DNA of 64,000 bases, taken from assembly GCA_001787005.1 (NCBI GenBank), contig MFUV01000004.1:105770-169769 (forward strand), read 5' to 3'. The notes under the pieces are model-generated. The model saw nothing but the letters and a program-made list of their open reading frames with translations, ran no database searches and had not been told where the DNA came from. How positions within the stretch are numbered: position 1 is the stretch's first letter; the number at the start of each line of letters is the position of its first letter. This document shows, one piece after another, positions 103 to 29,717 of the stretch. Source of the DNA: Candidatus Nomurabacteria bacterium RIFCSPLOWO2_01_FULL_39_18 (GTDB lineage Bacteria; Patescibacteriota; Minisyncoccia; Phycocordibacterales; UBA9973). Both the position numbers and the translations under genes were made by a program.

Positions 103-130
103 TTGCAAAAATTACTTTTCGTAGTATAAT
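103..130 (+). promoter_or_regulatory. sigma70-like promoter TTGCAA-N16-TATAAT upstream of pilB
   Basis: TTGCAA at 103-108 and TATAAT at 125-130, about 17 nt before the ATG at 148. Confidence 0.4.
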
Positions 131-147
131 TTTCTTCTAGTGATTTT

Positions 148-1377
148 ATGGATGAATTTAATTCAATTATTGAAAAGGAGCTGGCGACTGGAGTAAATCT
201 TTCTATTATTAATTTAATAGATCACCTGTTACGGCATGCCTGCAATATTCATGCATCCGATATTCATATAGACCCGCAGGATAAAGTGGTTCGTATTCGA
301 TTTCGTATCGACGGCGTGCTTGAAGATGCGCATACACTTCCTAAAGATATTCACGGAGAAATAATTTCAAGAATAAAAGTTCTCTCTGGTCTTCGCACTG
401 ATGAACATAATGCCGCGCAGGATGGGCGCTTTCGTAGTATTATTTCCGATTCGGAAAACTCTAGCAGTGTCGATGTGCGTGTTTCTATTGTGCCTACCTA
501 TCATGGAGAAAACGCTGTCCTTCGTCTTCTCTCGGACAACGCGGAAAATTTTACACTTGAAACACTTGGCTTTACGGGAACAGACCAAAGAAAGATTTTA
601 AATGCCGTTAAGAAACCGTCGGGTATGATTTTAGTTACTGGCCCGACAGGATCCGGGAAAACTACTACTCTTTATACATTGATTAAAATGTTAAATTCCA
701 AAGATATATCTATTGTTACCATCGAAGACCCGATCGAATATGCAGTGGAAGACGTGGAACAGATACAGGTTAATACTCGCACGGGGCTAACATTTGCCAA
801 TGGACTTCGTTCGATATTGCGCCAAGACCCGAATGTTATAATGGTGGGTGAAATTAGAGATGTGGAAACTGCTGGTATCGCAGTCAATACTGCTCTTACC
901 GGGCACTTACTCCTTTCCACGCTCCACACCAATGATGTCTCAACCACCCTTCCTAGACTGCTCGATATGAAGATAGAATCATTTCTCGTAGCCTCGACTG
1001 TATCTGTAGCTATCGGGCAGAGATTGGTACGAAAGATCTGCGAAAAGTGCAAAGAAAGAAAAACTGTAACTGATGAAGAATACAAATGGCTCTCTGAAAC
1101 TCTTTCAGATCAGACCCTGTTGCAGAATAGAAATTATTTTCAGGGTAAAGGATGTGAATCGTGTAACGGCAGTGGCTATCGAGGACGAATCGTTATTGCT
1201 GAAGTACTAGTCGCTGATGAAGAAATTCGAACAGCAATCTTGCGCAAAGCTTCGGCGAGCGAAATTAAGCAGATTGCAATGAAGAACGGGATGACAACGA
1301 TGCTCGTCGACGGTTTCAAAAAAGCAGTTCTAGGGCTTACTACCATAGAAGAGGTTCTTCGTGTTACGCACGAATAA
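148..1377 (+). CDS. pilB: type IV pilus / T2SS assembly ATPase, GspE/PilB family (short N-terminus)
   Basis: Walker A GPTGSGKTT, Asp and His boxes, C-terminal tetracysteine CxxC...CxxC; followed by pilC and pilins. Confidence 0.85.
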   Translation: MDEFNSIIEKELATGVNLSIINLIDHLLRHACNIHASDIHIDPQDKVVRIRFRIDGVLEDAHTLPKDIHGEIISRIKVLSGLRTDEHNAAQDGRFRSIISDSENSSSVDVRVSIVPTYHGENAVLRLLSDNAENFTLETLGFTGTDQRKILNAVKKPSGMILVTGPTGSGKTTTLYTLIKMLNSKDISIVTIEDPIEYAVEDVEQIQVNTRTGLTFANGLRSILRQDPNVIMVGEIRDVETAGIAVNTALTGHLLLSTLHTNDVSTTLPRLLDMKIESFLVASTVSVAIGQRLVRKICEKCKERKTVTDEEYKWLSETLSDQTLLQNRNYFQGKGCESCNGSGYRGRIVIAEVLVADEEIRTAILRKASASEIKQIAMKNGMTTMLVDGFKKAVLGLTTIEEVLRVTHE

Positions 1378-1380
1378 ATT

Positions 1381-2562
1381 ATGGCTAAAAAATATTTAGA
1401 TTTTTTTAAAAAAAAGAGTCCAGTACACCCGATACACAAGGTAGATACCACAAAGGATAAAAAGTCCCCCGCCAAGAAAAACAGATGGCAAGATATTAGC
1501 TTTTTTTCCTACTCAAAATTTTCAGTAAAGAAACAGACATTTTTCGCCAAACGGTTGTCTTTCCTGATCAAAGCCGGAGTGCCGATGCTTGAGAGCATGT
1601 ATGTAATTAAAAAACAAGCAAAATCAAAATCCGAGATAGGTGTTTTTGAAAAAATCATTGCTGATATCGCCAATGGGCAATCTCTGGCCACATCCTTGGG
1701 GCGTTTCAAGGGAGTATTTGGAAATTTTGCCCTAAATATCATAAAGGCCGGCGAATCTAGCGGAACTTTGATGCAAAACTTGAGTTACCTAGCTGATGAA
1801 TTAAAGAAGAAAGAATTGCTCCGTAAAAAAATAATGAGCGCCCTCCTCTACCCTATCATCATCACGATAGCGACTCTTGGCATCACCGGACTTCTGGTAA
1901 TTTATATTTTCCCTAAAATTCTTCCAATCTTTCAAAATTTGGGCGCGGAGCTTCCCCTTTCCACCAGAATTGTCATATTTGTCAGCGATGGAGTGCGCAA
2001 CTATGGTTTTTATATTCTTCTGGGATTGATCGTGTTCGTTATAATTTCTTATTTTTTAAATAAAAAGTTGCCACCGTTCAGATTCTTTCTTCACGGATTG
2101 ATTCTCCGACTTCCATTTACTGGAGCGGTTGCCAAACACTACAACCTTACGAACTCTACCCGAACATTGGGACTTCTACTTAAAAGTGGACTGTCTCTAA
2201 CGGAGTCGCTCCATGTTACAGCCGATACTACGGAGAATGTGCAGTACAAAAAAGCTTTTGAAAATATTTCTCGTGGAGTAATGAAAGGCAAGAGTATGTC
2301 TGACATCATGGGTCAGTCCCCCCACCTTTTCCCCGACATGTTGGAGCACATGCTCTCAATTGGAGAAAAAAGCGGCAACTTGTCAACTACGCTTATTTAC
2401 CTATCTGAATATTACGAGAACGAATTTGATGAACTGACAAAAAACCTTTCTACTTCTATCGAGCCAGTACTGATGATTGTAATGGGAATTTTGGTAGGGT
2501 TCATCGCAATCTCTGTCATCACTCCGATATATGGCATTACCCAACACCTCAATCCAAAATAA
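1381..2562 (+). CDS. pilC: type IV pilus platform protein PilC/GspF
   Basis: 393 aa polytopic membrane protein with two T2SSF-like repeats, immediately after pilB. Confidence 0.85.
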   Translation: MAKKYLDFFKKKSPVHPIHKVDTTKDKKSPAKKNRWQDISFFSYSKFSVKKQTFFAKRLSFLIKAGVPMLESMYVIKKQAKSKSEIGVFEKIIADIANGQSLATSLGRFKGVFGNFALNIIKAGESSGTLMQNLSYLADELKKKELLRKKIMSALLYPIIITIATLGITGLLVIYIFPKILPIFQNLGAELPLSTRIVIFVSDGVRNYGFYILLGLIVFVIISYFLNKKLPPFRFFLHGLILRLPFTGAVAKHYNLTNSTRTLGLLLKSGLSLTESLHVTADTTENVQYKKAFENISRGVMKGKSMSDIMGQSPHLFPDMLEHMLSIGEKSGNLSTTLIYLSEYYENEFDELTKNLSTSIEPVLMIVMGILVGFIAISVITPIYGITQHLNPK

Positions 2563-2567
2563 ATTTT

Positions 2568-3032
2568 ATGGCGACTTTGTATAAAACAAAACAAGGACTC
2601 ACTCTGATCGAAATACTAGTAGTGGTGGCAATAATCGGGATCATCATTAGTTTTGGGATGTCCATTGATTTGAATGCTTTTAGGCGCGACACTTTCCAAG
2701 CCGAAGAGTCTACTATCGTTGCTCTTTTAGGAAAGGCTCGTAGTCGAGCGATGAGCAATATGTTTGACACAGCTCATGGAGTGTGTTACATTGCACCTAA
2801 CTACATTGTTTTCCGTGGTACTTGTGTTGCTGGAATACCAACCAATGAACTCACTCCAGCCAATGCGGCCATTGCTACAGCTTCCGACTTCTCCAATCCC
2901 GCAAAATTTCCTTCCGTTGTTTTTAATAGACTTGCGGGAACAGTAACTGGTAGTACTATTGATATAACAGTAACTGATGGGCTCAAAACAGAACATATAA
3001 TAATAAACAATGAAGGCACAATCAACTGGTAA
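2568..3032 (+). CDS. prepilin-type (class III signal) pilin/pseudopilin
   Basis: N-terminus KQGLTLIEILVVVAIIGII matches the G|FTLIE prepilin cleavage/methylation motif. Confidence 0.7.
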   Translation: MATLYKTKQGLTLIEILVVVAIIGIIISFGMSIDLNAFRRDTFQAEESTIVALLGKARSRAMSNMFDTAHGVCYIAPNYIVFRGTCVAGIPTNELTPANAAIATASDFSNPAKFPSVVFNRLAGTVTGSTIDITVTDGLKTEHIIINNEGTINW

Positions 3033-4458
3033 CAAATACATAAAAGGTATGGCAACCCTGGAGCTACTCATAGCTTTCGTGATACTTATACTATGCACCA
3101 GCGCCGTCATTATGGTTGCCTTCGGCAATCAGTCTTTCGCGGTTGATTCAGAAACGAACAATGAAGCTATCCAAAAAGCGCAGAAAGCACTGGAAGATAC
3201 AAGAGCTCTCTCTAGGCAGGATTTTGATTTAGTAGTTTCTGACCCAAATCCCATCCAAGATGGTATCTATACTAAACAAATTATAGTTGATCCATTTGCA
3301 GCCACGGAATGCAGTAGGCAGATCGAGTCTAAAATCACATGGGATACTGATATGAATCAGCCTCAAAGTATCAACCTATTCAGTCGTGTTGGAGATATTC
3401 CGGAGGCATTAGACTTGGGGGGAGACTGCTCGGCATCGCCACCCGGACCAGGATTCACTGTAGGTGGAGGACTGAATATGGGAGGTGCTAAAACAAATGG
3501 TTTAGATGTGTTAAATAAAAAAGTTTTCATCGCTCTTCAAGATCCTCCCGGGTTAGCATATGTAGACGCCACAAACTATGCGGCTCCCGTTCAAATAATG
3601 AATAGTTACGATGTTGGTTCTGAAGTAAATGATGTAGATATTGCCCGTGATCTAGATACCGGAGAAATCTATGCATATGTTGCTAGAGAAACAAATACCA
3701 ATCAGCTTCAAATTATTGATGTGACAGATATTAATAACCCGATTTTTGTTAGAAATGTAGATTTACCAGAAGTTGGAGGTAGTTCCGAACCGGAAGGATA
3801 CCGAGTTTATTATTATAAAAATAGACTCTATATGACCACCAAAGAAACTGCAGGTCCAGAACTCCATATATTCGATGCTTCGGACCCAGTAACTTCTTTC
3901 CCAAAGTTTGGAATAAAAGAATTAAACAGAACAGTGAATGATCTTGTGGTAGTTGATCAAAATATTGGTGGCACGAATTATTCTGTCGCTTACATGGTGG
4001 CCGATTCAGATCTAAAAGAGATTGGAGTATTTGATGTTACTACTGCAGGAACTGCAAACGAAATGTTTTCACTGAATATGACAGGTGGTGCCGATGCTTA
4101 TTCTTTATTTTTCTCTTCTACATCCAAACTTTTGTATGTAGGACGACAGGCGAACGCTGGTCAAGAATTTTTTGCATATGATGCATCTAACTCCTTTTCC
4201 ACACTTATTGAAAGAGCAAAGAGAGAAGTTGGTGAACATCCTATCGGTCTTCGTATTGCTGGTGCCTATGCATACATGGTTACAAATGATAGTAATGAAG
4301 ATTTTCAAACTTACAATGCTGATCCAGCGACTGGTCTTTCACATATTCGTACTTATAATGCTTCAAATAAAGGCACAGGCATAGATTACGAAGATCAGTT
4401 TATTTATGAAACTATGGAACAAGGAAGCGAAACTCTTCAAATCTACTATGCTCCCTAG
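3010..4458 (+). CDS. large pilin-like protein with LVIVD-repeat (beta-propeller-like) C-terminal domain; putative pilus tip adhesin
   Basis: Leader MKAQSTGNKYIKG|MATLELLIAFVIL is prepilin-like; repeated YAYVA..LQIIDVTD / YSVAYMVADSDLKEIGVFDVT / AYAYMVTND motifs typical of LVIVD repeats. Confidence 0.6.
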   Translation: MKAQSTGNKYIKGMATLELLIAFVILILCTSAVIMVAFGNQSFAVDSETNNEAIQKAQKALEDTRALSRQDFDLVVSDPNPIQDGIYTKQIIVDPFAATECSRQIESKITWDTDMNQPQSINLFSRVGDIPEALDLGGDCSASPPGPGFTVGGGLNMGGAKTNGLDVLNKKVFIALQDPPGLAYVDATNYAAPVQIMNSYDVGSEVNDVDIARDLDTGEIYAYVARETNTNQLQIIDVTDINNPIFVRNVDLPEVGGSSEPEGYRVYYYKNRLYMTTKETAGPELHIFDASDPVTSFPKFGIKELNRTVNDLVVVDQNIGGTNYSVAYMVADSDLKEIGVFDVTTAGTANEMFSLNMTGGADAYSLFFSSTSKLLYVGRQANAGQEFFAYDASNSFSTLIERAKREVGEHPIGLRIAGAYAYMVTNDSNEDFQTYNADPATGLSHIRTYNASNKGTGIDYEDQFIYETMEQGSETLQIYYAP

Positions 4459-4930
4459 GTCATTAAATAAAGGTTTCACTCTTATAGAGGTCTTAATTTA
4501 CATAGTCCTTTTTTCCATTCTCATGGGAGGTGGTTTTATAACTGCATATCAAATGATTGATGGTTCCAGGAAATTGAGCGCGAAAGATACTTTACAAGAA
4601 GAGGGTAATTTTATTATGCGAAAAATCAGCTGGGCACTGACAAGTGTTGATCCTACGGTTGCCACAATACCCTCAGCAGGAACTTCCCCCAACCTTAGAG
4701 TGACGAAATACGACGGAAATCAAATTGACGTTCAACTTAATGGAACAAAAATAGAAATGAAGCAAAGTATTAATGGCAGCACTTTTCGCCCGATAACGAC
4801 TGACAATGTTTCTGTCAGTAGTCTGCAATTTACATATATAACACCAGTGGGATTAGAGCCCGCGGGTATTACGGCAGCAGCAGTTATAAATGGAATAAAC
4901 TTTACCATTACAAAATACATGAGAAAATAA
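4448..4930 (+). CDS. minor pilin-like protein (prepilin N-terminus)
   Basis: MLPRSLNKG|FTLIEVLIYIVLFSIL; ORF track starts at 4406 but the internal Met gives a canonical short leader. Confidence 0.6.
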   Translation: MLPRSLNKGFTLIEVLIYIVLFSILMGGGFITAYQMIDGSRKLSAKDTLQEEGNFIMRKISWALTSVDPTVATIPSAGTSPNLRVTKYDGNQIDVQLNGTKIEMKQSINGSTFRPITTDNVSVSSLQFTYITPVGLEPAGITAAAVINGINFTITKYMRK

Positions 4931-4931
4931 T

Positions 4932-5348
4932 GTGAAAATGATTATTCTAAATAAAAGAAGAAATAAAGGATTCATCGCTCTCATATCTGCCATTGTCATT
5001 TCGGTGATTTTGTTACTCATTGCAGCCAACTTAAGCTTGACTTCATTTTATGGCCGCTCGAATATTTTAGATTCAGAACTTAAAGAAAGAAGTTCTGCCT
5101 TGGCTGAAGCTTGCGCAGATACAGCAATTTTAAAATTAGCAAACAATAAAGATTATGTATTAGTTGCCGCTGATCACAGCATCTCCGTGGGAACGGGACA
5201 ATGTGATATTGTTTCTTATTCTTTTCCCCGAACTGGAAACATAACCATCATAACAAAAGCTAATTATAATAATACTTATTTTACTACTCTACAGATTGTA
5301 GTTAATTCAGCAGCGAACATGGCTGTTGTTTCTTGGGAAGAAATATAA
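4932..5348 (+). CDS. minor pilin-like protein
   Basis: RRNKG|FIALISAIVISVILLLIA hydrophobic pilin-like N-terminus (no Glu5). Confidence 0.5.
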   Translation: MKMIILNKRRNKGFIALISAIVISVILLLIAANLSLTSFYGRSNILDSELKERSSALAEACADTAILKLANNKDYVLVAADHSISVGTGQCDIVSYSFPRTGNITIITKANYNNTYFTTLQIVVNSAANMAVVSWEEI

Positions 5349-5457
5349 ACATCATATCAACAGTCCCCCCTTTACAAACTGGCTACTATGTAGTAGTCTA
5401 CGGGACATATTATTAATATAAATAAGTCGAATATTATAAGTAAGTTATTATAAATTT

Positions 5458-5916
5458 ATGAAAAAAATCGTTAAAAATAAGGGTTTTACGTTGATTGAGA
5501 TTTTGGTCGTTATCGCTATCATTGCCATTTTGGCAGCTATAGTGCTTGTTGCTATCAATCCTGCTAAGAGATTCCAGGATGCTAGAAACACACAACGAAG
5601 AGCAAATGTGGAATCTATCTTGAGCGCAGTTCAACAGAATATGGTTGACAATAAAGGAATCTTTACATGCGCTGGCCCAGGAGCAATTCCTGCTGTCGCA
5701 ACTGTCATGGAGGACACAGGGGGCTATGATATAGCAGAATGTATTAGTGCTTACCTTTTAGTTCTTCCGGTTGATCCACAAAATGGTTCATGGACCGACG
5801 ATGACAATTATGATACAGACTACACTATTAAACAGGATGCTACTACTAAACAAGTAACTATCAATGCTCCGTCTGCTCCCGGAGACGGTGGAGGAACAAT
5901 TTCTGTCACTCGCTAA
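5458..5916 (+). CDS. pilA: type IV major pilin (PilA-like)
   Basis: MKKIVKNKG|FTLIEILVVIAIIAILAAIVL canonical class III signal; followed by a strong terminator. Confidence 0.8.
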   Translation: MKKIVKNKGFTLIEILVVIAIIAILAAIVLVAINPAKRFQDARNTQRRANVESILSAVQQNMVDNKGIFTCAGPGAIPAVATVMEDTGGYDIAECISAYLLVLPVDPQNGSWTDDDNYDTDYTIKQDATTKQVTINAPSAPGDGGGTISVTR

Positions 5917-5935
5917 ATAAATCCGATCTAGTTGC

Positions 5936-5972
5936 AAAAATCCCTCACATGCACGCATGTGAGGGATTTTTG
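5936..5972 (+). terminator. rho-independent terminator after the pilin gene
   Basis: CCCTCACATG-CACG-CATGTGAGGG stem followed by ATTTTT. Confidence 0.8.
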
Positions 5973-6599: not shown

Positions 6600-9500
6600 C
6601 TATTTCAACCCTATTGTTACAGAATAAACATTTCCATCATCAAGTTTGGTAGAAATGGTATACCAATATCCGGCTGGTAATTTTTTCGTACTCCAGTTAT
6701 AGATATACTGCTGACTTTCAGGATCCCATTTGTATGTGTTGCCAGTTGTCGCAGTGTCATTATAAACAGATTCAGTGGCGGAAACATTCATTTTCGCACC
6801 CATTTGCGCACCGAGCCATATAGGCGCCGAATCTGCTTGCATAATTGTGCCATCATATTTTCTAAGTTGAAATTTAACAGGGACTGTACTGCCAGCTTTG
6901 AATATGCTTTTCTCTTGATCAATTTGATGTGCTGTATCGTTTATTGGTTGGAGAAAACCAGAGAAAACATATGGCATAGTAACGGTTCTACCTTCAGGGG
7001 CAATAATATCTGTCTCTGGGACCCCATCTCCATTTTGATCAAGTTGTAATAATAAAGCTCCCGCAGAATTCAGTGTAACTTCTGCGATTGTCTCCGGGGT
7101 CACTGGAATATCTTTAAAGATTGTTGTCGTCGTTGTTCCATTGGTTAGAACCTTTTCTGATTCATATGTGAATATACCGGTATCTATACCTTTTATTTCT
7201 ATACTCCCCATTTCGTCTTCGGGGAGGTTTAAGTACTTACCCTCACCGAATTCCATATATGATGAATTCGTAATATTTTCTTCTACATAACAAAAGTCAA
7301 AATCTGGCGGGCAAATTTTACCAGTGTGATTAGGTACTGTAGCATAATCATAAGCATCGAGAGTAACCGGTGAGTGAATTGAAATACGAAAACGATTTTC
7401 TGTGTCTATTGGTTCGTTGTCTTTTACCACATTGTCTAATGCAACATCTCCAGCTTCAATTATTGATTTAATAAAATTATTCAGTGAATCGACTTCTAAA
7501 ATATCTTTATGTTCTCTGTTGAGTCTCAATATAGTATTATAATTTTTAAAATCTACCCAATATTTTTCCGCATTTCCAAGAAAATTCATATATTGCGCAC
7601 TAGGCACAACTACAGTTCCATCCCCATCCGAGGTAAAACGAGGTCTTTCGTCTAATGCATACGGAGGACATGTTACAGCTCCGGGTGGGCAAGACACTGA
7701 TTTTGGGTAGTACTCCATACTTGCGACAGTTTCGAGTCCCCAGCCAGCCACTTCAATCACTCGCATGTCTTCAGGCGGAGTCCATGCGTCTATATTGTCG
7801 TGCAAACTTTCTGCTTGAGAAAATAAATCTTGTGAGAGATTGATAGGCAAATTTGTTTCACCAATCAATGGATTGGTTCGACCTTCATTTCCAAAAAGAA
7901 AATCTTTGTACTCGTCATAGGAATCAATTACGCCACCAAAAGCTTGAACCATTTGTGTTGTAATTCCCGAAGGAATTGCATTATCCACGAATGTCGCAGG
8001 TGAAGCATCGACATGATTTATATATTCTTTACTTGGTAAAAGTCCATAAGCCCCGAGCATATTTCGTCCAAGTTCACGAGCGTGAATTTCGTCCATTAGC
8101 CAGCCACTCAAAATTCTCTGGTCATATCCATGGAGTATTGCTGGTACTGCCTTTGCTGTGCCAATTTCTGGCACGGCAACTAAAATTAATACATCTATAT
8201 TATCAATTAGATTATTTATTCCCGCAACCTTGTCGTCTTGTAATTTTTTCAAAAGCGTTTTAGCTAAAAGTCCACCGTTGCTGTGAGCAACAATGGTAAC
8301 TTTGCCGTTTTTTGATTCCGAGTCGACCAATGATTGTAGAGTATCGATTAACGAGACTGTTTCATTTTGATATTTTGTTCCATTGCTCACAATGTCTTCA
8401 ATGTCTTGTCGCCAGTCATAGGCATATTCTTTCCATTTTTTTATTTTTTGATCAGTAACCAATTGATCCATAGTTTCAGAAAAACTTTTATAGATATTTT
8501 GTCCCAAAGCCCCTGCTGGAAATGGCGTGTTTGTCTCTTTTATGATATCTCTTGTATAAATATCTAGATTCATGCTTGTTCCATCAGGATTCAAATACAA
8601 ATCTTCCACATCGCTGTTTGTATTTGGTTCCCATAACTGGTCTTCATCTCCATTATCTTGCTCGTACAATCTAGAACCCATTATTCCCGGCAAAAAGAGA
8701 ACATTGGAGAAACAGGTGGTGCAAGTCGGAACTTTCCAGCCATCTGGTATTTTCCAAGGGAAATTGTCGGTTACATTGCCAAAGCTAATCGCAGTATCAC
8801 AAATAAAATCATTATTTATATCATTACATCCCTCCTCTGGAGTATCGTGGTTGCGATAATAGTTACCACCTATTGGCATTGGTTGATAAATGAGATTTGC
8901 AGAATTACTAAAGGAAGAAATATTCGGAATGGACATGAAATTATTATTGTAAACTTTATTATTGTTTACATTTGAACTCATTGCGACACCTATATTAGTT
9001 ACAGAAATTGTGTTGTTGCGCACCGTTGTTCTTTGTGTATTCTGAGTTAAAAGTATTCCTGTGCTAATAATGTTTACACCAGGAATATATCCAGCTGTAT
9101 TGGTTACCACATTGCCATCAATGAGATTATCAAAATCATTAAAGGAAAGAAAAAATCCTAAACCGAAGCCACGTGTTTCGTTGTTTAAGAATCGGCTATT
9201 TGTTGTTTGAAACACACCAATCCCACTATCAAAACCTTCAATAATTAAATTTTTTACTGTAATGTTTTTTCTAAAAGCAATATTAATTCCACTTCCAACC
9301 CCAAATCCATTATTCCATTTCACTATTTTTCCATTACCGTCGAGCGTAATATTGTCATTCACAATTTGTATTACTTCGAACACATCCTGTGTCATGGTGC
9401 AAGTAAGGGTGACTTGGTTCCATATGCCAAATGTAGAGCAATCTCCGCCCGTAGTATCATTACGAATGGTTTTTGTACTAGGTTGAGTTTTAATGAAAAT

Positions 9501-9902
9501 TAAATGAGGTTCGTAGCCATTTAAAGTAAAAGTTGTATTTGGGGATTCATTTGCAGAACGTTGCACCACATTTTCCAATGAATCAATATAAAAATAAAGG
9601 TCTTGGTTTGGAAGATTTTCCAATAAAATAGTTATTTCTTCTTTGCCTGCTATTGGAATAAATACCACAGATGATCCTAGCGATATTTCTTTTATAATTT
9701 CAGTTTCGGGGCTAGAAGAAATAGTGATATCTAAAAAGTCTTGTATAAATGGAAGATTGGCTGTTTCCGTTGTCGAGGCAGACTCATTTAGGAGAATAGT
9801 ATCTTCAGCATTTACTGTATGCCCACCCCAAAAAGACACCAAAATGAGGACCACCACCCCAAATTTCAATGCATTTTTCAGTACAGTCATAAATATCTCC
9901 AT
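6600..9902 (-). CDS. large secreted multidomain protein: signal peptide + right-handed beta-helix repeats + LCAT-like lipase domain + C-terminal domains
   Basis: Signal peptide MTVLKNALKFGVVVLILVSFWGGHTVNA; NITLDGNGKIV / NITVKNLIIEG type beta-helix repeats; FLPGIMGSRLY and VTIVAHSNGGLL (GxSxG-type) motifs as in the LCAT family. ORF-track start 9980 overlaps a palindrome and was rejected in favour of MEIFM/MTVLK. Confidence 0.65.
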   Translation of the reverse strand: MEIFMTVLKNALKFGVVVLILVSFWGGHTVNAEDTILLNESASTTETANLPFIQDFLDITISSSPETEIIKEISLGSSVVFIPIAGKEEITILLENLPNQDLYFYIDSLENVVQRSANESPNTTFTLNGYEPHLIFIKTQPSTKTIRNDTTGGDCSTFGIWNQVTLTCTMTQDVFEVIQIVNDNITLDGNGKIVKWNNGFGVGSGINIAFRKNITVKNLIIEGFDSGIGVFQTTNSRFLNNETRGFGLGFFLSFNDFDNLIDGNVVTNTAGYIPGVNIISTGILLTQNTQRTTVRNNTISVTNIGVAMSSNVNNNKVYNNNFMSIPNISSFSNSANLIYQPMPIGGNYYRNHDTPEEGCNDINNDFICDTAISFGNVTDNFPWKIPDGWKVPTCTTCFSNVLFLPGIMGSRLYEQDNGDEDQLWEPNTNSDVEDLYLNPDGTSMNLDIYTRDIIKETNTPFPAGALGQNIYKSFSETMDQLVTDQKIKKWKEYAYDWRQDIEDIVSNGTKYQNETVSLIDTLQSLVDSESKNGKVTIVAHSNGGLLAKTLLKKLQDDKVAGINNLIDNIDVLILVAVPEIGTAKAVPAILHGYDQRILSGWLMDEIHARELGRNMLGAYGLLPSKEYINHVDASPATFVDNAIPSGITTQMVQAFGGVIDSYDEYKDFLFGNEGRTNPLIGETNLPINLSQDLFSQAESLHDNIDAWTPPEDMRVIEVAGWGLETVASMEYYPKSVSCPPGAVTCPPYALDERPRFTSDGDGTVVVPSAQYMNFLGNAEKYWVDFKNYNTILRLNREHKDILEVDSLNNFIKSIIEAGDVALDNVVKDNEPIDTENRFRISIHSPVTLDAYDYATVPNHTGKICPPDFDFCYVEENITNSSYMEFGEGKYLNLPEDEMGSIEIKGIDTGIFTYESEKVLTNGTTTTTIFKDIPVTPETIAEVTLNSAGALLLQLDQNGDGVPETDIIAPEGRTVTMPYVFSGFLQPINDTAHQIDQEKSIFKAGSTVPVKFQLRKYDGTIMQADSAPIWLGAQMGAKMNVSATESVYNDTATTGNTYKWDPESQQYIYNWSTKKLPAGYWYTISTKLDDGNVYSVTIGLK

Positions 9903-9978
9903 ATTAGCAGTATTTCCTAAAACGGCAACTGGGGGCCAGTCTGTAGTAGAGTTAGGGTTAATAAAATCTATAATTACC

Positions 9979-9998
9979 ATCTACGCCATGGCGTAGAT
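9979..9998. repeat. palindrome A copy 2 (ATCTACGCCATGGCGTAGAT)
   Basis: Perfect palindrome exactly between the stop of the 9998-10366 gene and the promoter region of the lipase gene. Confidence 0.9.
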
Positions 9999-10366
9999 TA
10001 GTTTGTATATGATTTAGCTAACTTAAATGTTTTAAATTCTTTCTGCAGGCCAATTCTTTTCAGATAAGCAAGAAAATCCACCGGCAGTGGCGAAGGCCCA
10101 ACCCAGACACTTTTCTGAATCATGACAAAATCAAAATTCTTAAGCTGTCGACGAAACCAATCTCGCTCTTTTTTCCTCGTATACGGAACATCGTACATTA
10201 AAAGTAGGTTCTTTGGCGCATCTTTTTTAAAATCAGAAACAAAAGAACGAAGATACAGCCGTTTGTTTTTTTTAGTATTTTTAAATTTTTTCGAATCACT
10301 GAAACTTGGCAAACCTAGAATATTCACCGGCACACCTTTGTAATAAAATTTCTTTCTTCTCGTCAT
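9998..10366 (-). CDS. small basic protein with Cas2/PaaX_C-like domain (paralog of 29178-29717 C-terminal half)
   Basis: LLLMYDVPYTRKKERDWFRRQLKNFDFVMIQKSVWVGP aligns with WRLVMYDLPIRFKKARDAFRFKLKDLGFFQFQKSAWIYP of the 179-aa paralog; the beta-YDV...R.Q.SV pattern resembles Cas2/VapD. Confidence 0.45.
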   Translation of the reverse strand: MTRRKKFYYKGVPVNILGLPSFSDSKKFKNTKKNKRLYLRSFVSDFKKDAPKNLLLMYDVPYTRKKERDWFRRQLKNFDFVMIQKSVWVGPSPLPVDFLAYLKRIGLQKEFKTFKLAKSYTN

Positions 10367-13423: not shown

Positions 13424-13428
13424 ATTTG

Positions 13429-13502
13429 TCCGTCCTCTTGGATTCGAACCAAGGACCCCAGAGGTATAAGCTCTGTGCTCTAACCAACTGAGCTAAGGAC
13501 GG
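13429..13502 (-). tRNA. tRNA-Ile (anticodon UAU)
   Basis: Manual fold: acceptor CCGTCCT/AGGACGG, D-arm GCTCAGTTGGTTAGAGC, anticodon stem CAGAG/CTCTG with loop CTTATAC, T-arm CTTGGTTCGAATCCAAG, discriminator A; CCA not encoded. Confidence 0.8.
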
Positions 13503-21541: not shown

Positions 21542-22084
21542 TTAAAAACGCATATTAAACCAGTCTAATTCGTATTCTTTTTTAATTAAAACTCTCTCCC
21601 CTTCACCAATACTTTTGTGATCTTCCAATCCGAGTATTTTTATTGCTTCTTGCACATGTTCATGACTTTTCCCTTCAATTTCCAGATAAGCGGGCATCCC
21701 TGGGTACTGATCCAGGTCAAATTGCCAATCCTTTAGGAGGAAAGATGCACGATCTTTTTCTTGATGGGCATAGTGCTCTATCCCGACATTTTCAAAAAGC
21801 TTCCCGGCAAGGATAGCATCACCAACACTTATATTTATCTCGTCAGAATGTCTGGTATTGCCTGTTATTTCTGGTAATGACTTCCAACTTATTTCAGACT
21901 TCCCACCCGTACTAGTTCGAATTCTTAAATACCATGGATCGTCGCCTTCATGGGTCAAACCTTTGGGTCCGTACCAATCGATAACAAGTCTTGTGTTCTG
22001 TATCTCTTTCGCGCCAAGTGCTTTTAACTTTTCTTTTACTTCTTCCTTATCTACATTTAAAACTTTCGTTTCAATTTCGTGCAT
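21542..22084 (-). CDS. CYTH-domain protein (triphosphate tunnel metalloenzyme / CyaB-like)
   Basis: N-terminal HEIETKVL (ExExK), LRIR and C-terminal YLEIE motifs. Confidence 0.7.
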   Translation of the reverse strand: MHEIETKVLNVDKEEVKEKLKALGAKEIQNTRLVIDWYGPKGLTHEGDDPWYLRIRTSTGGKSEISWKSLPEITGNTRHSDEINISVGDAILAGKLFENVGIEHYAHQEKDRASFLLKDWQFDLDQYPGMPAYLEIEGKSHEHVQEAIKILGLEDHKSIGEGERVLIKKEYELDWFNMRF

Positions 22085-22093
22085 AAAATCTAT

Positions 22094-22501
22094 TTAATCA
22101 ACAGGGCTTTCTACTTGCTCGTTTGTAAAGATAAAACTAGTTAAACCAGAATAGTACTGACTTTTAAACCATTTGACAGCTTCAGGGTCAACTTTGTTTA
22201 AAGCTGACAAGAGAGCATCCATTCTTACTTGATAAGTATAATTATCATTAGAATGTAATCTACTGTGACCACCCCCTACTTTTGGCGACACTAATGATCC
22301 GCCTGTAAACTCGGGCTCACCTGGGTCTAATGGGACTTTTATTTTGCCTAATGCTTCCTTAACAAAATCTGGAACAAAATCTGGAAAATTCTGAGGATTT
22401 AAAGTGATGTGCATATTATGTACTTGTTTCCCATGAAGTACCTCCGTAGGGAATTTTTCCTTCCCATATTCTTTTTTCCATGCTTCTGCTCTTGGATCCA
22501 T
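22094..22501 (-). CDS. hypothetical protein
   Basis: ORF only; embedded in the CYTH/ndk operon. Confidence 0.4.
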   Translation of the reverse strand: MDPRAEAWKKEYGKEKFPTEVLHGKQVHNMHITLNPQNFPDFVPDFVKEALGKIKVPLDPGEPEFTGGSLVSPKVGGGHSRLHSNDNYTYQVRMDALLSALNKVDPEAVKWFKSQYYSGLTSFIFTNEQVESPVD

Positions 22502-22509
22502 ACTAGTTA

Positions 22510-23064
22510 TTATAACTCATTTAATTTACTGTAAAGCATGATGTCATACTTGCCATCGATGACTTGATCTTCTTTTGAAACACCAAGGGTACTGAGAAAA
22601 TCGAATAATTCCTCTTGAATTTTCTTTCTGTCTTCGTAATCCTCGTGCTTTACCATCTTCTCTACTTCGATAAACTCTCCAAGTTGTTCCACAACATCAA
22701 GTACTATCTCCATATCTTTAAAGCTTGTCTTGATTCTCTTTTTATCCACGGTGGGGAGCTTATCCCATTTCATAAGTTCTAGAATCTCAACCATCATCGC
22801 CCCGTCCTTAATTTCCATTTCTCTTTCAATGCAATCCTGGTGACTACTCTGCGGAATCTTTAGGGTAAAAAAATATTTATCATTCTGTTTACGCACGCGT
22901 AAAACAGTCGCGCCCATAGGAACATCAGGATAAGGGGTTCCTTTTGGTGCAAACACATAATCAATTTGATGAAGCTCTTCGGAAAATTTACACCCAAGAT
23001 TTTGAAGTTTCTCCTTTACGGCTTCTCTATCCTTCAAAACCGCTTTTACTTCAACTTCATACAT
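22510..23064 (-). CDS. CYTH-domain protein (second paralog)
   Basis: YEVEVKAVL (ExExK), LRVR, FIEVE motifs. Confidence 0.7.
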   Translation of the reverse strand: MYEVEVKAVLKDREAVKEKLQNLGCKFSEELHQIDYVFAPKGTPYPDVPMGATVLRVRKQNDKYFFTLKIPQSSHQDCIEREMEIKDGAMMVEILELMKWDKLPTVDKKRIKTSFKDMEIVLDVVEQLGEFIEVEKMVKHEDYEDRKKIQEELFDFLSTLGVSKEDQVIDGKYDIMLYSKLNEL

Positions 23065-23069
23065 AAATT

Positions 23070-23663
23070 TTACTCATCCACTCCGAAACGTTTGTAGTCG
23101 TAAGTCGTGTCATCGCCGAACCAGTGTTTTATTTCATGCTCTGCTTCTTCGGGAGTTTCGGAACAATGAACAATATTCATTACTGCCCGTTTTTCTTTAT
23201 TCGCTAATGCCGGAGAATCAATCGAGAAATCCCCACGAATCGTCCCCACTTCTGCCAGATACGGCATCGTCGGTCCCGCAATTTTTCTCACCACATCTAC
23301 TGCATGCACGCCCTGCACAACCATTTTTACCAGCGGGGCAGATTTCATGTAGTCAACTAGCCATTTGCGAATTTCGGGACCAATTTGCGCAGGATCAATT
23401 GTGCCAAAATCAGCCAGCGCATCATAGCCATATTTTTCATAAGTTGAAAGAGTCTTGTGTCCAAGCCGAGTAATCCATTCTTCATTTTTTGGATAATGAG
23501 TGTCGAGCTGGTCATGAGATGGCTGGAACATTTCCAATGCCACAATCTTCAAATCTCGCTGTTCAAAACGACGGATAATCTCCCCCGTCAAGCCCTTGCG
23601 GACTCCGTCCGGCTTTATCATCACATATGTCTTTTCCTCTTTTGGATGTTTCATATTAACCAA
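23070..23663 (-). CDS. ndk: nucleoside diphosphate kinase (long form)
   Basis: TYVMIKPDGV ... NIVHCSET (NxxHxSD-like active-site His region). Confidence 0.75.
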   Translation of the reverse strand: MVNMKHPKEEKTYVMIKPDGVRKGLTGEIIRRFEQRDLKIVALEMFQPSHDQLDTHYPKNEEWITRLGHKTLSTYEKYGYDALADFGTIDPAQIGPEIRKWLVDYMKSAPLVKMVVQGVHAVDVVRKIAGPTMPYLAEVGTIRGDFSIDSPALANKEKRAVMNIVHCSETPEEAEHEIKHWFGDDTTYDYKRFGVDE

Positions 23664-23691
23664 TATAACAGAAAAAAATAATTTTGCAAAA

Positions 23692-24255
23692 TTATTTTTT
23701 TCTCATTCCTTTGAAAGTTATAGAGGAATAGTCGTCTATATTAATTCCATATCTTAGATAGCCTTCTTTGGCAGAAAAAATAAGACCATCTTTTGGATCA
23801 AGACCTATTTTTTGCGCAGAATTCTGTGCTTCTTTTATTGATGTTGATTCAACTTCAAGATAAGTGGGAATCTCCGGCCAAGAATCAATATCAAAAACTG
23901 TTTTTCCTTTCCTATATCTTATCTTTTTATTCTCTTCTTCCCTCTTTATCACAAGTCTGATAGATTTGAGTAATTCATAAGTTTTCTCATAATCATCTAC
24001 TATTACTTCTATTTCTTTCATTCCGGCATTGTCTCCATATCTTCCTTTTACACTTTCTTTGTAAGCTAGTGTTATTTCTTTCCCGTTGGTTCGTAACCTC
24101 AGCCATCGATCTCTCCGATTCATCCGAAAGTCTGGATAATCAAAAAGAGCTCGGCGGTAATCGTACTCTCCCACTTTCTCTGCGCTGATTTCTGCAAGCT
24201 TCTTCTCAAGTTTCGGGACGTCAACCTCTAAAAATGTAATTTCAAATTCTTCCAT
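23692..24255 (-). CDS. CYTH-domain protein (third, divergent paralog)
   Basis: EEFEITFLEVD, WLRLR, TYLEVE motifs; same size as the other two. Confidence 0.6.
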   Translation of the reverse strand: MEEFEITFLEVDVPKLEKKLAEISAEKVGEYDYRRALFDYPDFRMNRRDRWLRLRTNGKEITLAYKESVKGRYGDNAGMKEIEVIVDDYEKTYELLKSIRLVIKREEENKKIRYRKGKTVFDIDSWPEIPTYLEVESTSIKEAQNSAQKIGLDPKDGLIFSAKEGYLRYGINIDDYSSITFKGMRKK

Positions 24256-24257
24256 AA

Positions 24258-27023
24258 TTATTCCATCGTCTGATACCTCGCCATAATCTCCGCCTCCACT
24301 TCTTCTCGGTCGCGGCCGTATTTCACATAAGAAAGTTCTTTCAGAGAATCCACGATGTCGGGATTGCCTTTTTCTGGGGCTAGAGTTATCAAATTAAAAG
24401 GTTTAGTTGGTTGACCTTTTATTAGCATGCTCATGTAGGCATTGTAGTTGTCGAGCTTGGTGATGTCGGCCGCGGTAAATTGGGGCTTGAATTTCGGCTC
24501 GAGAAATGTCGCGTCCTCAGTGCCGACACGGAAGACGGCCATGGAACCGACATTGCCGAAGACTGCATTTTTAATATTGTCTTCGAGCTGAGTGATGTAT
24601 TGATGCGCAATATTAAGCGAGAGTCTATATTTGCGAGCTTCAGATAAAATAGAAGCGATGGAGTCAGTCGTAACATTCTGAAACTCGTCAATGTAGAGAT
24701 AGAAATCATTCATCGGCTTGCCAAACATGTCTACTCGCGAGAGCGCCGCCATCTGGATTTTGCCGACTAAGACAAGCCCGATCAGATTCGCATTGATATC
24801 CCCGAGTCTACCCTTCGAGAGGTTCACTAGAAGAATTTTCTTCTCATCCATAATCTTGCGGAAATTAAAAACAGAGTTCTGCTGAAGCACCACTGGGCGC
24901 ATAATGTCATTGGAAATAAAATTATCAAATTTTGAAGAAATATACGGCACGAAGTTCGCCAAAGATTGGTCTCCTGTTGTTTGCTCGGCGGAAATCCAGA
25001 ATTGTTTGATTATTGGATTCTTGCATCTCTCGAGCTTCATGTCGCGGAATTCTTTGTCAGCCAAAACACGGGTAATCTCGAGTAAGGTTGAGCCGGACTC
25101 GGGATTTTCCATCACTAAAAAGGCGCTATTTCTGAAATATTGTTCAAACATCGCCCCGCCTCCGACCTTCATGTCGAAGAGTTTATTGAAAATTCCCATC
25201 AGTTCGTTCACTACGAAAGTTTTCTGCTCTGGATATTTCGGATCATACTCGAGCATATTGAGCCCCATTGGGCGGGCAGTATAAGCCGGATCGAAATAGA
25301 TCACGTCATCGATACGCTCTTTCGGAATCCTGGACAAGATTGTCTGGATGTCTGTACCGTGCGGGTCTATATAACAGCAACCATCGCCAGCCTTTATATC
25401 CTGCGTAATCATATTGAGCATGATGTTGGTCTTTCCTGTACCCGTCTGACCGATGACATAGAAATGCCTCATGCGATCTTCGCGTGCCAGATGAATTATC
25501 GTATCGCGCCCCCGATAACTGTTAACTCCTAAAATCACACCCTCTTGTCCCATTTCGAGTGGCGCCGGCGCAATGCCAGCTTTGGCTTCTTTAAGCTGTG
25601 GCTGACTCCCGATACCAACCGGGAAATGAAAGACTGAAGAGAGTTCTTTCAAATTCATCGGCAAAATCTTATCATGGGAAAAAGAGCGGAAAGAAAAGTC
25701 TTGAAAAAGTTTTTTCAAATCATTTCCTTGCATTTCTTCAAAAAAGAAAGAATTGCTAGCCGCTTCAGAAAATTGGTGAAAGGAAGATTCTATCTCTTTC
25801 AAAATCGCCCCTGCGCGTTCTTTCGTCTCGGCAGAGGCTATCACTCGAATATTTGCCTTCATGATAGTGCTTTTTATTTTGTTGCCTATTTTCTCAGCTG
25901 CACCTTCGTCTACTGCCCGTCTGCCCTTCATATATTTTTCTTTTTTTTCTTCCGGCTCTTTCTTCACTCCAAAAACAAGTTCTTTGCCCGCTTTCAGCAG
26001 GGCATGATTGAATTTGTAGAAATTATCAGCCGCGTGTTTGACGGATACGCCATCCTTTACATCATCTAGGATCTTATGGAATTCATTTATGAATTTGTCT
26101 CCAGCCGGCGCGATAACAAGCTGAATCGCCGCGCCTTCTCCCACTGTTTGCAGTTTGGAAAAAACATTAAGTATTGGATTCATCGGATCGTGTTCGATAT
26201 TGTCATAGGTCTTGATCGGCATCACTGCTCGCTCGGTAAAGCTCGCATAAGCCCCGACTGACCCGCCAGAAACATTGAAAATATTATAGTCGTCGGTGAC
26301 CTCTCGAATTTTCGCATCATGATAAAATGCTAAAATTTGTTTTTCAAATAGCGTTAGATGTTTGTTGGGGATGGCGGCATAGACCACCACTTCATCGCTC
26401 TCTCCCGAAAGCGCCACTTCCAGGGTGAAATAATTTTCTTTTTCATTATTTTTACCGATGGAGATAGAATGCATGCCGGCATAAAATTGCTCCATCGCGC
26501 CGATGAATTCTTTGAACCCTTTTGATTTGTCAGCCTCATCGGTAGGTGGCGGAAGCGTTATTTCAAACAGGGTCATATTGAGCGATTTGTACAGTGGTGA
26601 GTCTTCTTTAAAATCGGACACAACTTGGCCGGTCTTTAAATATTGAATTAAGAGTCGGTGGAAATCGTCTTCAATATGCGGACTCCCCATCGCTTCCATC
26701 ACCGAGAGCGCATTTTTAATTCCTTTGGTAATAACAACGCCCAAAAGCTCTTCCATCACCACGTCGTGGGCTTCGGGCTTGAGCGCAAGCACGATACCCT
26801 CTTTGTCCTTCTTGTCTAGGAGAATACTTTCATATAAAGCCTGCCCTGCTGGCACATCCCTATACGCTTCTACAACTTCGCCGGCCGCATTTTCTTTAGC
26901 ATTTTCAAAATGTCCTATTTTAATTAATTCTTGCTCTCTTTTAGCAACATGCGCCCGCAAGTAGTCAAGCTCCTCTTCTGGAGTCTTAAACTTCGGCATT
27001 TCCTTAAAGAAGGATGGTTCCAT
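24258..27023 (-). CDS. FtsK/HerA-superfamily P-loop ATPase with VirD4/TraG-like (AAA_10/TraG-D_C-like) C-terminal half and long unique N-terminal region
   Basis: Walker A GQTGTGKTN, Walker B LYIDEFQ, SEARKYRLSLNIAHQ; no N-terminal TM helices. Confidence 0.5.
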   Translation of the reverse strand: MEPSFFKEMPKFKTPEEELDYLRAHVAKREQELIKIGHFENAKENAAGEVVEAYRDVPAGQALYESILLDKKDKEGIVLALKPEAHDVVMEELLGVVITKGIKNALSVMEAMGSPHIEDDFHRLLIQYLKTGQVVSDFKEDSPLYKSLNMTLFEITLPPPTDEADKSKGFKEFIGAMEQFYAGMHSISIGKNNEKENYFTLEVALSGESDEVVVYAAIPNKHLTLFEKQILAFYHDAKIREVTDDYNIFNVSGGSVGAYASFTERAVMPIKTYDNIEHDPMNPILNVFSKLQTVGEGAAIQLVIAPAGDKFINEFHKILDDVKDGVSVKHAADNFYKFNHALLKAGKELVFGVKKEPEEKKEKYMKGRRAVDEGAAEKIGNKIKSTIMKANIRVIASAETKERAGAILKEIESSFHQFSEAASNSFFFEEMQGNDLKKLFQDFSFRSFSHDKILPMNLKELSSVFHFPVGIGSQPQLKEAKAGIAPAPLEMGQEGVILGVNSYRGRDTIIHLAREDRMRHFYVIGQTGTGKTNIMLNMITQDIKAGDGCCYIDPHGTDIQTILSRIPKERIDDVIYFDPAYTARPMGLNMLEYDPKYPEQKTFVVNELMGIFNKLFDMKVGGGAMFEQYFRNSAFLVMENPESGSTLLEITRVLADKEFRDMKLERCKNPIIKQFWISAEQTTGDQSLANFVPYISSKFDNFISNDIMRPVVLQQNSVFNFRKIMDEKKILLVNLSKGRLGDINANLIGLVLVGKIQMAALSRVDMFGKPMNDFYLYIDEFQNVTTDSIASILSEARKYRLSLNIAHQYITQLEDNIKNAVFGNVGSMAVFRVGTEDATFLEPKFKPQFTAADITKLDNYNAYMSMLIKGQPTKPFNLITLAPEKGNPDIVDSLKELSYVKYGRDREEVEAEIMARYQTME

Positions 27024-29177: not shown

Positions 29178-29717
29178 TTAAAGTCCAAAGTGAACTTTTA
29201 ATTTTGTTTCATCTAAAACTTTACTTACTTCTAAAATCTCTATATGCTTACGAACTCCATAAAAATCCGCTACGAACAGAATCTCCCCTTCGCATGGATA
29301 TGGATAGATCCAAGCACTCTTTTGAAATTGGAAAAATCCTAAATCTTTTAATTTGAATCTGAAAGCATCACGAGCTTTCTTGAATCTTATAGGAAGATCA
29401 TACATAACTAGACGCCACTTACCATCCCATTTTTTAGAGTTCTTGATTACAACTTCATCAATTAAGATTTCTCGTAACTTATTTTCCCCCTTTGGAGTGA
29501 TTATATATTTTTCTTTACCCTCTACTCTCACATGTCTAACAAATCTATATCTCCTCAAGCCGTGAAAAATCTGTTGTGTTTTTCGATTATTGTTGATGAT
29601 CGGCGATAATTTTTCTCCCAAAGCAACAGCGCAAAGTAAGCTTTGCGCTAGATTCATACCCTCCCCACCAGAGCTAAAAAATTTCTTTAATTTTGCTAAA
29701 TGTTCTAGTTTAACCAT
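29178..29717 (-). CDS. putative transcriptional regulator: N-terminal winged-helix + C-terminal Cas2/PaaX_C-like domain
   Basis: wHTH-like GLRRYRFVRHVRVEGKEKYIITPKGENKL; C-terminal WRLVMYDLPIRFKKARDAFRFKLKDLGFFQFQKSAWIYP. Confidence 0.5.
   Translation of the reverse strand: MVKLEHLAKLKKFFSSGGEGMNLAQSLLCAVALGEKLSPIINNNRKTQQIFHGLRRYRFVRHVRVEGKEKYIITPKGENKLREILIDEVVIKNSKKWDGKWRLVMYDLPIRFKKARDAFRFKLKDLGFFQFQKSAWIYPYPCEGEILFVADFYGVRKHIEILEVSKVLDETKLKVHFGL

Follow-up and report, generated by a model that had tools for sequence, protein, structure and literature searches.

A conserved type IV filament cassette of Parcubacteria-group bacteria encodes a minor pilin predicted to carry a seven-bladed LVIVD propeller

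In TM7x (Nanosynbacter lyticus), a bacterium of the Candidate Phyla Radiation (CPR), the T4P-2 minor pilin PilX2 carries a heptabladed beta-propeller and has been proposed as a tip adhesin; deletion of pilX2 halved host binding, an effect as large as that of losing the major pilin, while the mutant continued to produce pili, in altered number and length (PMC11623550). In the type IVa pili of diderm bacteria the priming complex is composed of FimU-PilVWX-PilY1, with PilY1/PilC as the tip adhesin (PMC7541494). For modular pilins a tip location has been proposed in general, and Dataset S1 of Raynaud et al. 2021 lists IPR012902-IPR013211(xN) architectures with several from CPR bacteria among the most frequent; a Falkowbacteria pilin of 860 residues has 12 IPR013211 motifs 'of unknown function' (PMC8179133). 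A literature search pairing LVIVD with pilin found a single paper, on an unrelated subject. Here a stretch of 64,000 nucleotides (the window, to which all positions refer) of Candidatus Nomurabacteria bacterium RIFCSPLOWO2_01_FULL_39_18, contig MFUV01000004.1, was analyzed in follow-up of an original prediction, made from the sequence, of a type IV pilus locus with a 482-residue propeller pilin. Positions 148-5972 hold a self-contained type IV filament cassette of a bacterium in the Parcubacteria group (Patescibacteria), and the 482-residue protein is encoded within it. Neither the modular-pilin class of architecture nor the notion of a tip adhesin with a propeller is new; what the analysis adds is a confidently predicted fold, an I-type assignment, a seven-gene cassette conserved across Parcubacteria, a partner lacking Glu at position +5 (Glu+5) and the size of the family.

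The 482-residue protein, annotated as hypothetical protein A3A95_02260 (100% identity), begins with the signal MKAQSTGNKYIKG/MATLE, in which the slash marks the predicted cleavage site after the leader (residues 1-13). The AlphaFold2 model, obtained with an alignment of homologues as input, had a mean predicted local distance difference test score (pLDDT) of 90 and a predicted template modeling score (pTM) of 0.84. It shows a 57-residue alpha1 helix (14-70), an antiparallel four-strand sheet (82-128; strands 82-84, 87-93, 102-114 and 117-128, with pLDDT 85-96 in the region), a short helix and, beyond a GGDC linker (137-140), 28 strands (150-480) that fall into seven sets of four. The pilin module modeled alone adopted the same fold with a pLDDT of 86. 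The protein is thus confidently predicted to consist of a pilin module and a regular seven-bladed propeller, in agreement with the architecture first proposed. Each blade ends in a strand of the form hhxhhD-h-S/T-x-P, there being seven such strands, one per blade (LAYVDAT, QLQIIDVTD, ELHIFDASDP, EIGVFDVT, EFFAYDASN, DFQTYNADP and TLQIYYAP). This blade-end repeat is the LVIVD repeat (PF08309), whose InterPro entry is IPR013211. The designation as an LVIVD-type propeller holds at the level of the family, since roughly two thirds of the homologues listed have a precomputed PF08309 match and one orthologue (L057) scores 55 bits, whereas the 482-residue protein by itself is sub-threshold, with 15.2 bits against a gathering cut-off of 20.2 (E=0.014). 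Its match to choice-of-anchor B TIGR04312 (E=5e-7) is likewise under the curated cut-off.

The prepilin leader KG/MATLE read in the original prediction is borne out by the family, in which Gly at -1 (Gly-1) and Glu+5 are present in 64 of 64 genomic orthologues. Among 40 aligned homologues G13 and E18 are kept in 97%, and the positions kept in at least 90% comprise M1, G13 (-1), L17, E18 (+5), A22 and several residues of alpha1-C, together with Y87, C101, W111 and the GGDC motif. Two residues, D166 and E284, do not vary at all, and D210, Y221, Q232, D237, Y274, H286, R379 and Y466 are also conserved. A disulfide between the conserved cysteines C101 and C140 probably fastens the linker to the sheet. 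The conserved leader MKAQ..G.K..G supports the ATG at 3010 as the start, and the resulting overlap of 23 nucleotides with the preceding gene recurs in orthologous loci. The +1 residue varies among family members (F, S, M, V and others), which probably lowers the N_methyl score of the family; one orthologue reached 18.2 bits against a cut-off of 21.2.

The possibility that the open reading frame (ORF) is a fusion artefact of two genes, raised together with the original prediction, is excluded by several results. The identical protein was called on 20 contigs assembled independently (NCBI, JGI, ENA and Logan), with identical neighbors of the gene in the six places shown. A search returned 221 homologues at E<=0.001, and those listed are nearly all 450-570 residues long with a query coverage of 77-100%, nearly all above 88%. 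A profile run against 1.84 billion cluster representatives matched 3,565 clusters (50% identity) at E<=1e-30, a number that includes multi-propeller giants. Most of the best 150 clusters are of approximately 470-520 residues and match profile positions of about 1-492 in a single stretch, and a few are giants of one to six thousand residues with several propeller copies. Longer members were also observed. Extended orthologues of 655-781 residues occur in loci L045 (539-2884), L057 (6956-9070), L063, L074 and L075, that of L045 having bacterial Ig-like domains C-terminal of the propeller, and the cluster representative P0121 (1998 residues) has a full pilin and propeller at its start followed by further repeats.

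To map the distribution of the locus, GTDB representative genomes, one for each species, were scanned with a query alignment of 12 closer sequences. The scan yielded 66 loci, and every informative title named a Patescibacteria lineage (Nomura-, Zambryski-, Lipton-, Giovannoni-, Kaiser-, Adler-, Terry- and Amesbacteria, Paceibacteria and Minisyncoccia). The labels 'uncultured Candidatus Saccharibacteria' and 'Gammaproteobacteria' on some contigs of third-party-annotation metagenome-assembled genomes (TPA MAG) were not trusted and were not used for claiming presence in those groups. BLAST of the seven cassette proteins against the ORFs of the loci showed the order PilB, PilC, 154-like, propeller pilin, 174-like, 138-like and major pilin almost everywhere, the names referring to the lengths of the short pilins encoded in the window. 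When all flanking ORFs were clustered, the seven cassette families were the only ones shared by most loci, six of them in about 55-64 of the 66 loci each and the BLAST-recognizable major pilin in 37; the next commonest flanking family, a PKD/peptidoglycan-binding protein, was found in only 15. The design of a pilin joined to a propeller is real and widely conserved in Parcubacteria.

In the window the cassette is a single operon of seven tightly packed or overlapping genes, encoding in order a short PilB, PilC, four minor pilins and the major pilin, and ending in a hairpin terminator. The earlier placement of the seven genes was confirmed, every one of them lying on the forward strand at the positions given here.

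103-130, forward strand: sigma-70-like promoter match just 5' of pilB, TTGCAA-16-TATAAT, 10/12 matches
148-1377, forward strand: PilB/GspE-type assembly ATPase, 409 residues, T2SSE PF00437, E=4e-121
1381-2562, forward strand: PilC/GspF platform protein, 393 residues, T2SSF PF00482, E=3e-53 in two stretches
2568-3032, forward strand: minor pilin, GspH/FimU-like by position and weak matches to hidden Markov models (HMM), 154 residues, signal KQG/LTLIE
3010-4458, forward strand: modular minor pilin, 482 residues, signal IKG/MATLE, overlapping the preceding gene
4448-4930, forward strand: minor pilin, GspJ/PilW-like by position, signal NKG/FTLIE, longest ORF from 4406
4938-5348, forward strand: minor pilin-like protein without Glu+5, candidate GspK/PilX/ComGG-like cap, signal NKG/FIALI
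5458-5916, forward strand: candidate major pilin, 152 residues, signal NKG/FTLIEILVVIAIIAILAA
5935-5972, forward strand: intrinsic-terminator-like hairpin closing the operon, 17-bp perfect stem, 4-nucleotide loop

The gene upstream of the operon is divergent and the gene downstream convergent, and the cassette therefore stands alone. The hairpin begins 19 nucleotides past the stop codon of the last pilin gene, and its stem bears out the strong terminator that had been noted there. Promoter-like sites were no commoner in the region than in shuffled sequence, for which reason the match at 103-130 is only a candidate. The assembly ATPase and platform protein required of type IV filament machinery are both present. 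The ATPase scored 480 bits on TIGR02533 (GspE) and 469 bits on TIGR02538 (PilB), and the alignments start only at model positions 107 and 180, respectively, which indicates that the protein lacks the usual N-terminal domain; most orthologues from other loci are equally short (about 400-420 residues, median 407). A tetracysteine motif (CxxC...CxxC) is located at C298/301/336/339. The platform protein scored 275 bits on TIGR02120 (GspF).

When the window was scanned in six frames with a regular expression, exactly four motifs of the form G/xxxxE followed by a hydrophobic helix were detected, all within the operon. The five prepilin-like genes of the original prediction are accordingly four with a canonical signal and a fifth, the 138-residue protein, that keeps Gly-1 with a hydrophobic residue at +5 and hence is not a canonical prepilin. 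In the orthologue sets from the 66 genomes the Gly-1 and Glu+5 residues of the pilin-like N-termini are kept, Glu+5 lacking only in the 138-residue family. N_methyl (PF07963) was above threshold for the 154-, 174- and 152-residue proteins. For the 154-residue pilin the E values were 1e-6 for N_methyl, 0.008 for GspH (PF12019) and 8e-5 for TIGR01708, with Gly-1 in 59/59 and Glu+5 in 58/59 orthologues. The next short pilin gene could encode 174 residues, although the start at 4448 is likelier than that at 4406 and gives 160 residues with a 9-residue leader, as in the NCBI call. This pilin matched N_methyl (E=2e-8) and, weakly, gspJ TIGR01711 (E=0.002), and both Gly-1 and Glu+5 are present in 59/59 orthologues. 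An HMM class for the family was not specific, the matches being a mixture of ComGE, GspH, ComGF and GspJ, and the label J-like was therefore given by position only.

The 138-residue ORF starts at GTG 4932; the start at 4938 is likelier and gives 136 residues, as the gene callers have it. Its orthologues have Gly-1 in 55/55 and Glu+5 in 2/55, nearly all of the others being hydrophobic at +5; in the family alignment Gly-1 and two Cys are invariant and every +5 residue is hydrophobic. The protein itself had no Pfam family match, and a Pfam class assignment failed beyond a lone PilX_N match among the 32 family members scanned. A last minor pilin of four that lacks Glu+5 is a hallmark of GspK/PilX/ComGG, the subunit capping the tip complex. 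The absence of Glu+5 and the gene position are the grounds for the label K-like. Minor pilins of the GspK/PilX type without Glu+5 are also treated in PMC8179133. In the Paceibacteria loci L016, L020, L023, L024, L034 and L064 the K-like gene is a giant of 593-1798 residues with the same N-terminus, and the full-length giants scanned (L020 and L064) have C-terminal SpaA-like prealbumin-fold domains (PF19403). The giant K-like pilin is a second modular pilin within the same cassette.

The last gene is the best candidate for the major pilin, as originally proposed. Its signal reads NKG/FTLIE, with Gly-1 in 39/39 and Glu+5 in 38/39 orthologues, and it matched N_methyl with E=4e-9. The candidacy is supported by a best GspG match to TIGR01710 (E=2.4e-9), an N-terminus of 25 residues that is almost invariant in 38 orthologues, an AT-rich gap of 109 nucleotides upstream of the gene and the terminator behind it.

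The class of the propeller-bearing pilin was evaluated by an NCBIfam scan of 29 N-terminal modules of the family, which matched ComGE in 19/29, PilV in 18/29 (best E=1.3e-9) and XpsI/GspI in 10/29, all below the curated cut-offs. ComGE, PilV and XpsI/GspI are three names for the I-type core minor pilin. The 482-residue gene is also second in an H-I-J-K set whose last member is without Glu+5. Assignment of the pilin module as an I-type (PilV/GspI/ComGE) core minor pilin is supported mainly by these consistent weak HMM matches and the gene order.

The gene content, signal motifs, predicted fold, conservation and synteny observed here are best read as a filament in which the propeller borne by the minor pilin is probably a tip-displayed binding module on a core minor-pilin complex, in the role of PilY1. 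In the proposed working of the cassette, drawn by analogy from the GspHIJK and FimU-PilVWX-PilY1 priming complexes (PMC7541494), the four core minor pilins, in the classical order of H-like (154 residues), I-like (482), J-like (160/174) and K-like (136/138), would assemble on PilC. The 482-residue prepilin would be cleaved at Gly13 by the prepilin peptidase PilD, encoded elsewhere, and its PilV/GspI/ComGE-type module would insert into the priming complex. The complex would prime the PilB-driven polymerization of the 152-residue pilin and would be carried to the distal tip of the filament. There the acidic LVIVD propeller would be shown on its GGDC linker, in one copy per pilus, as a module for binding a surface, host or glycan ligand. 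A role as a tip adhesin in host attachment is suggested by the architecture, the gene order and the precedent of TM7x PilX2, and host attachment takes the episymbiotic lifestyle of this Nomurabacteria lineage as a premise.

Several results weigh against this proposal. Neither PF07963 nor TIGR02532 (N_methyl) matched the 482-residue protein at E<=0.1, and every class-specific minor-pilin HMM match was under its curated cut-off. A Foldseek search with the isolated pilin module gave no significant match (none at E<0.05, best E=0.07); its list contained no pilins other than a competence pilin of Thermus and EpsI (3cfi_A, template modeling (TM) score 0.58, E=0.56; 2ret_C, TM 0.50, E=0.42; TM normalized to the target). 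The profile of the module matched only marginal pilin N-termini among PDB sequences (Geobacter PilA-N, E=0.01). PilD (A24 peptidase), PilM/N/O and PilT were found neither within the window nor among the conserved neighbors in the 66 loci. The tip location of the propeller pilin is itself inferred. Furthermore, the mean pairwise identity of the propeller is 37% versus 38% for the pilin module, with blades 2-3 the most conserved (42%). Variation in the propeller does not exceed that in the pilin module, and in this respect the propeller is unlike a rapidly diversifying determinant of host specificity; the hypervariable propeller expected of a host-range determinant was not seen. The propeller is acidic throughout, with isoelectric points (pI) of 4.1-5.4 and net charges of -3 to -23 in 40 family members (-23 in the 482-residue protein). 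Equal conservation together with the acidity points to either a conserved ligand, probably cationic, metal-mediated or a glycan, or a partly structural role, and disfavors a general DNA-binding role.

The last point bears on the alternative that the cassette encodes a competence-type or T2SS-like (type II secretion system-like) pseudopilus for DNA uptake, with the propeller as a DNA receptor at the tip (cf. ComZ in Thermus and ComEA-type capture), which would serve nucleotide scavenging by a CPR cell unable to make nucleotides. The alternative is consistent with the pseudopilin GspG as the best match of the major pilin, the slightly better scores of the ATPase and platform on GspE/GspF than on PilB/PilC, the absence of PilT from the cassette and the window, ComGE as the commonest match of the pilin module, and a propeller that is fairly conserved, as a universal ligand would predict. 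It is nevertheless unlikely on the acidity of the propeller in all 40 members, a structural match to YncE no better than the matches to dozens of WD40 propellers, and the host binding in which the characterized analogue PilX2 acts. Genes for ComEA, ComEC or DprA were not found adjacent to the cassette here or as conserved neighbors elsewhere. CPR cells are thought to be without an outer membrane, which makes a secretin-based T2SS function unlikely.

Less likely still is a location of the 482-residue protein outside the filament, where the class III signal would serve as an anchor or for export of a surface propeller acting as an enzyme, lectin or receptor. Some archaeal proteins with class III signals use the signal in this manner, and many surface proteins that are anchored in other ways have LVIVD/choice-of-anchor-B propellers, multi-propeller giants among them; the missing N_methyl match would also fit. 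However, the gene lies between core minor-pilin genes with overlapping frames in approximately 60 genomes, Glu+5 is a residue that matters for filament assembly and not for anchoring and is found in all 64 orthologues, and the pilin module, besides its PilV/ComGE/XpsI-type similarity, has a complete pilin head domain in which two Cys are conserved. Very improbable is a chiefly structural propeller that caps or plugs the priming complex and sets pilus initiation or number. In TM7x, loss of the propeller pilin cut host binding like loss of the major pilin with pili still being made, and a surface propeller of 340 residues is a typical ligand-binding scaffold; on the other side stand the changed filament number and length of the pilX2 deletion, the conservation of the propeller, highest in blades 2-3, at the level of the pilin module, and the giant SpaA-like K-like pilin that could be the real adhesin in some lineages.

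If the tip-displayed binding module is extended to the Parcubacteria/Paceibacteria as a whole, the separate PilY1-type adhesin would be replaced throughout by the fusion of an LVIVD propeller to a PilV/GspI pilin, and the ligand would be common to many hosts or surfaces. Exactly one propeller would prime each pilus and stand at its tip, the ligand could be, for example, a cell-wall glycan bound via a metal ion, and the giant K-like pilin would add a lineage-specific adhesin in some lineages. A common ligand is suggested since the propeller is acidic, has invariant Asp/Glu and equals the pilin stalk in conservation. Taken jointly, these parts form a scenario that is doubtful, with a modest chance of holding in full; if true, a single protein family would be a handle on the attachment targets of the mostly uncultured Parcubacteria.

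Almost nothing is known of the host or surface contact of Parcubacteria-group CPR bacteria, of which very few are cultured. A well-folded propeller of 340 residues on a core minor pilin is a concrete and expressible candidate for binding assays. The results carry both the principle of modular pilins and the finding on PilX2 of Saccharibacteria over to a further large clade of the CPR and suggest that the role of PilY1 could pass to a direct fusion with an I-type minor pilin. They overturn no existing view.

Other features were observed in the window. The gene convergent on the pilus operon (6600-9980, reverse strand) encodes a 1126-residue protein with a NosD-type beta-helix (E=2e-7) and an LCAT/lipase-like alpha/beta-hydrolase domain (PF02450, E=3e-12), which may be a secreted lipid-attacking enzyme; it was not a conserved neighbor of the cassette in the other genomes when the flanking ORFs of the 66 loci were clustered. 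Two small PaaX_M/Cas2-like proteins (PF20803, E=1e-12 for the first) are encoded at 9998-10366 and 29178-29717 on the reverse strand; no CRISPR array or further cas genes were noticed. A tRNA-Ile with anticodon TAT was identified by ARAGORN at 13428-13502 (reverse strand); it is uncommon in bacteria, in which AUA is usually decoded by a lysidine-modified CAT tRNA. At approximately 21542-24255 (reverse strand) three CYTH-domain genes are interleaved with a nucleoside-diphosphate kinase and a gene without a Pfam match, and this run is adjoined at 24258-27023 by a DUF8128 protein of 913/921 residues. A reverse transcriptase (PF00078) at 63075-63965 on the reverse strand extends beyond the end of the window, with 336 residues on the full contig, and the gene next to it, immediately past the window, is bAvd (PF22296). 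The two genes together indicate a diversity-generating retroelement at the window edge.

Compared with the described systems, the 482-residue protein is like TM7x PilX2 in belonging to a CPR organism, in having a pilin helix and head at the N-terminus and a seven-bladed propeller at the C-terminus, and in being encoded in a five-pilin locus that includes the major pilin. In contrast to the RCC1-repeat propeller of PilX2, its propeller is of the LVIVD type with no RCC1 Pfam match at E<=0.1, a comparison made with the published description of PilX2. PilX2 is predicted to be without a PilD signal, whereas Gly-1 and Glu+5 are universal among the orthologues here, and, unlike in the PilX2 locus, the genes for the pilins come immediately after pilB-pilC as part of a single cassette. 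In common with PilY1 and FimU-PilVWX, a seven-bladed propeller accompanies a core set of four minor pilins whose genes follow the same order, and its expected role would be to prime assembly and then to bind a ligand at the tip. PilY1 is a non-pilin with a Sec signal that docks non-covalently, whereas here the propeller is covalently fused to a PilV/GspI-type pilin; the 482-residue protein had no Pfam match to PilY1/PilC, and PilY1 was absent from the top structural matches.

The arrangement is also that of the modular pilins PilB (vWA) and PilC (lectin) of Streptococcus sanguinis, in which a small pilin module and a short linker carry a grafted functional module, although the modules differ in fold. 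The catalogue of modular pilins (PMC8179133) gives InterPro codes only, without the structure, synteny or I-type core assignment. GspH-I-J-K and ComGD-GE-GF-GG have the same gene order and number, with a last member without Glu+5 and a second member of I-type. With only about 80-120 residues, GspI and ComGE are the smallest of the pseudopilins, in contrast to the I-type member here that bears a 340-residue propeller, and the K-like member here is small (136 residues) and without the alpha-domain of GspK. With the PF08309/TIGR04312 surface propellers the protein shares the repeat motif and seven-bladed fold, although the anchor is a type IV pilin module in place of a C-terminal sorting signal. 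The 482-residue protein is a likely functional analogue of PilY1 and PilX2 and, by its Pfam matches and its canonical signal, a member of neither protein family.

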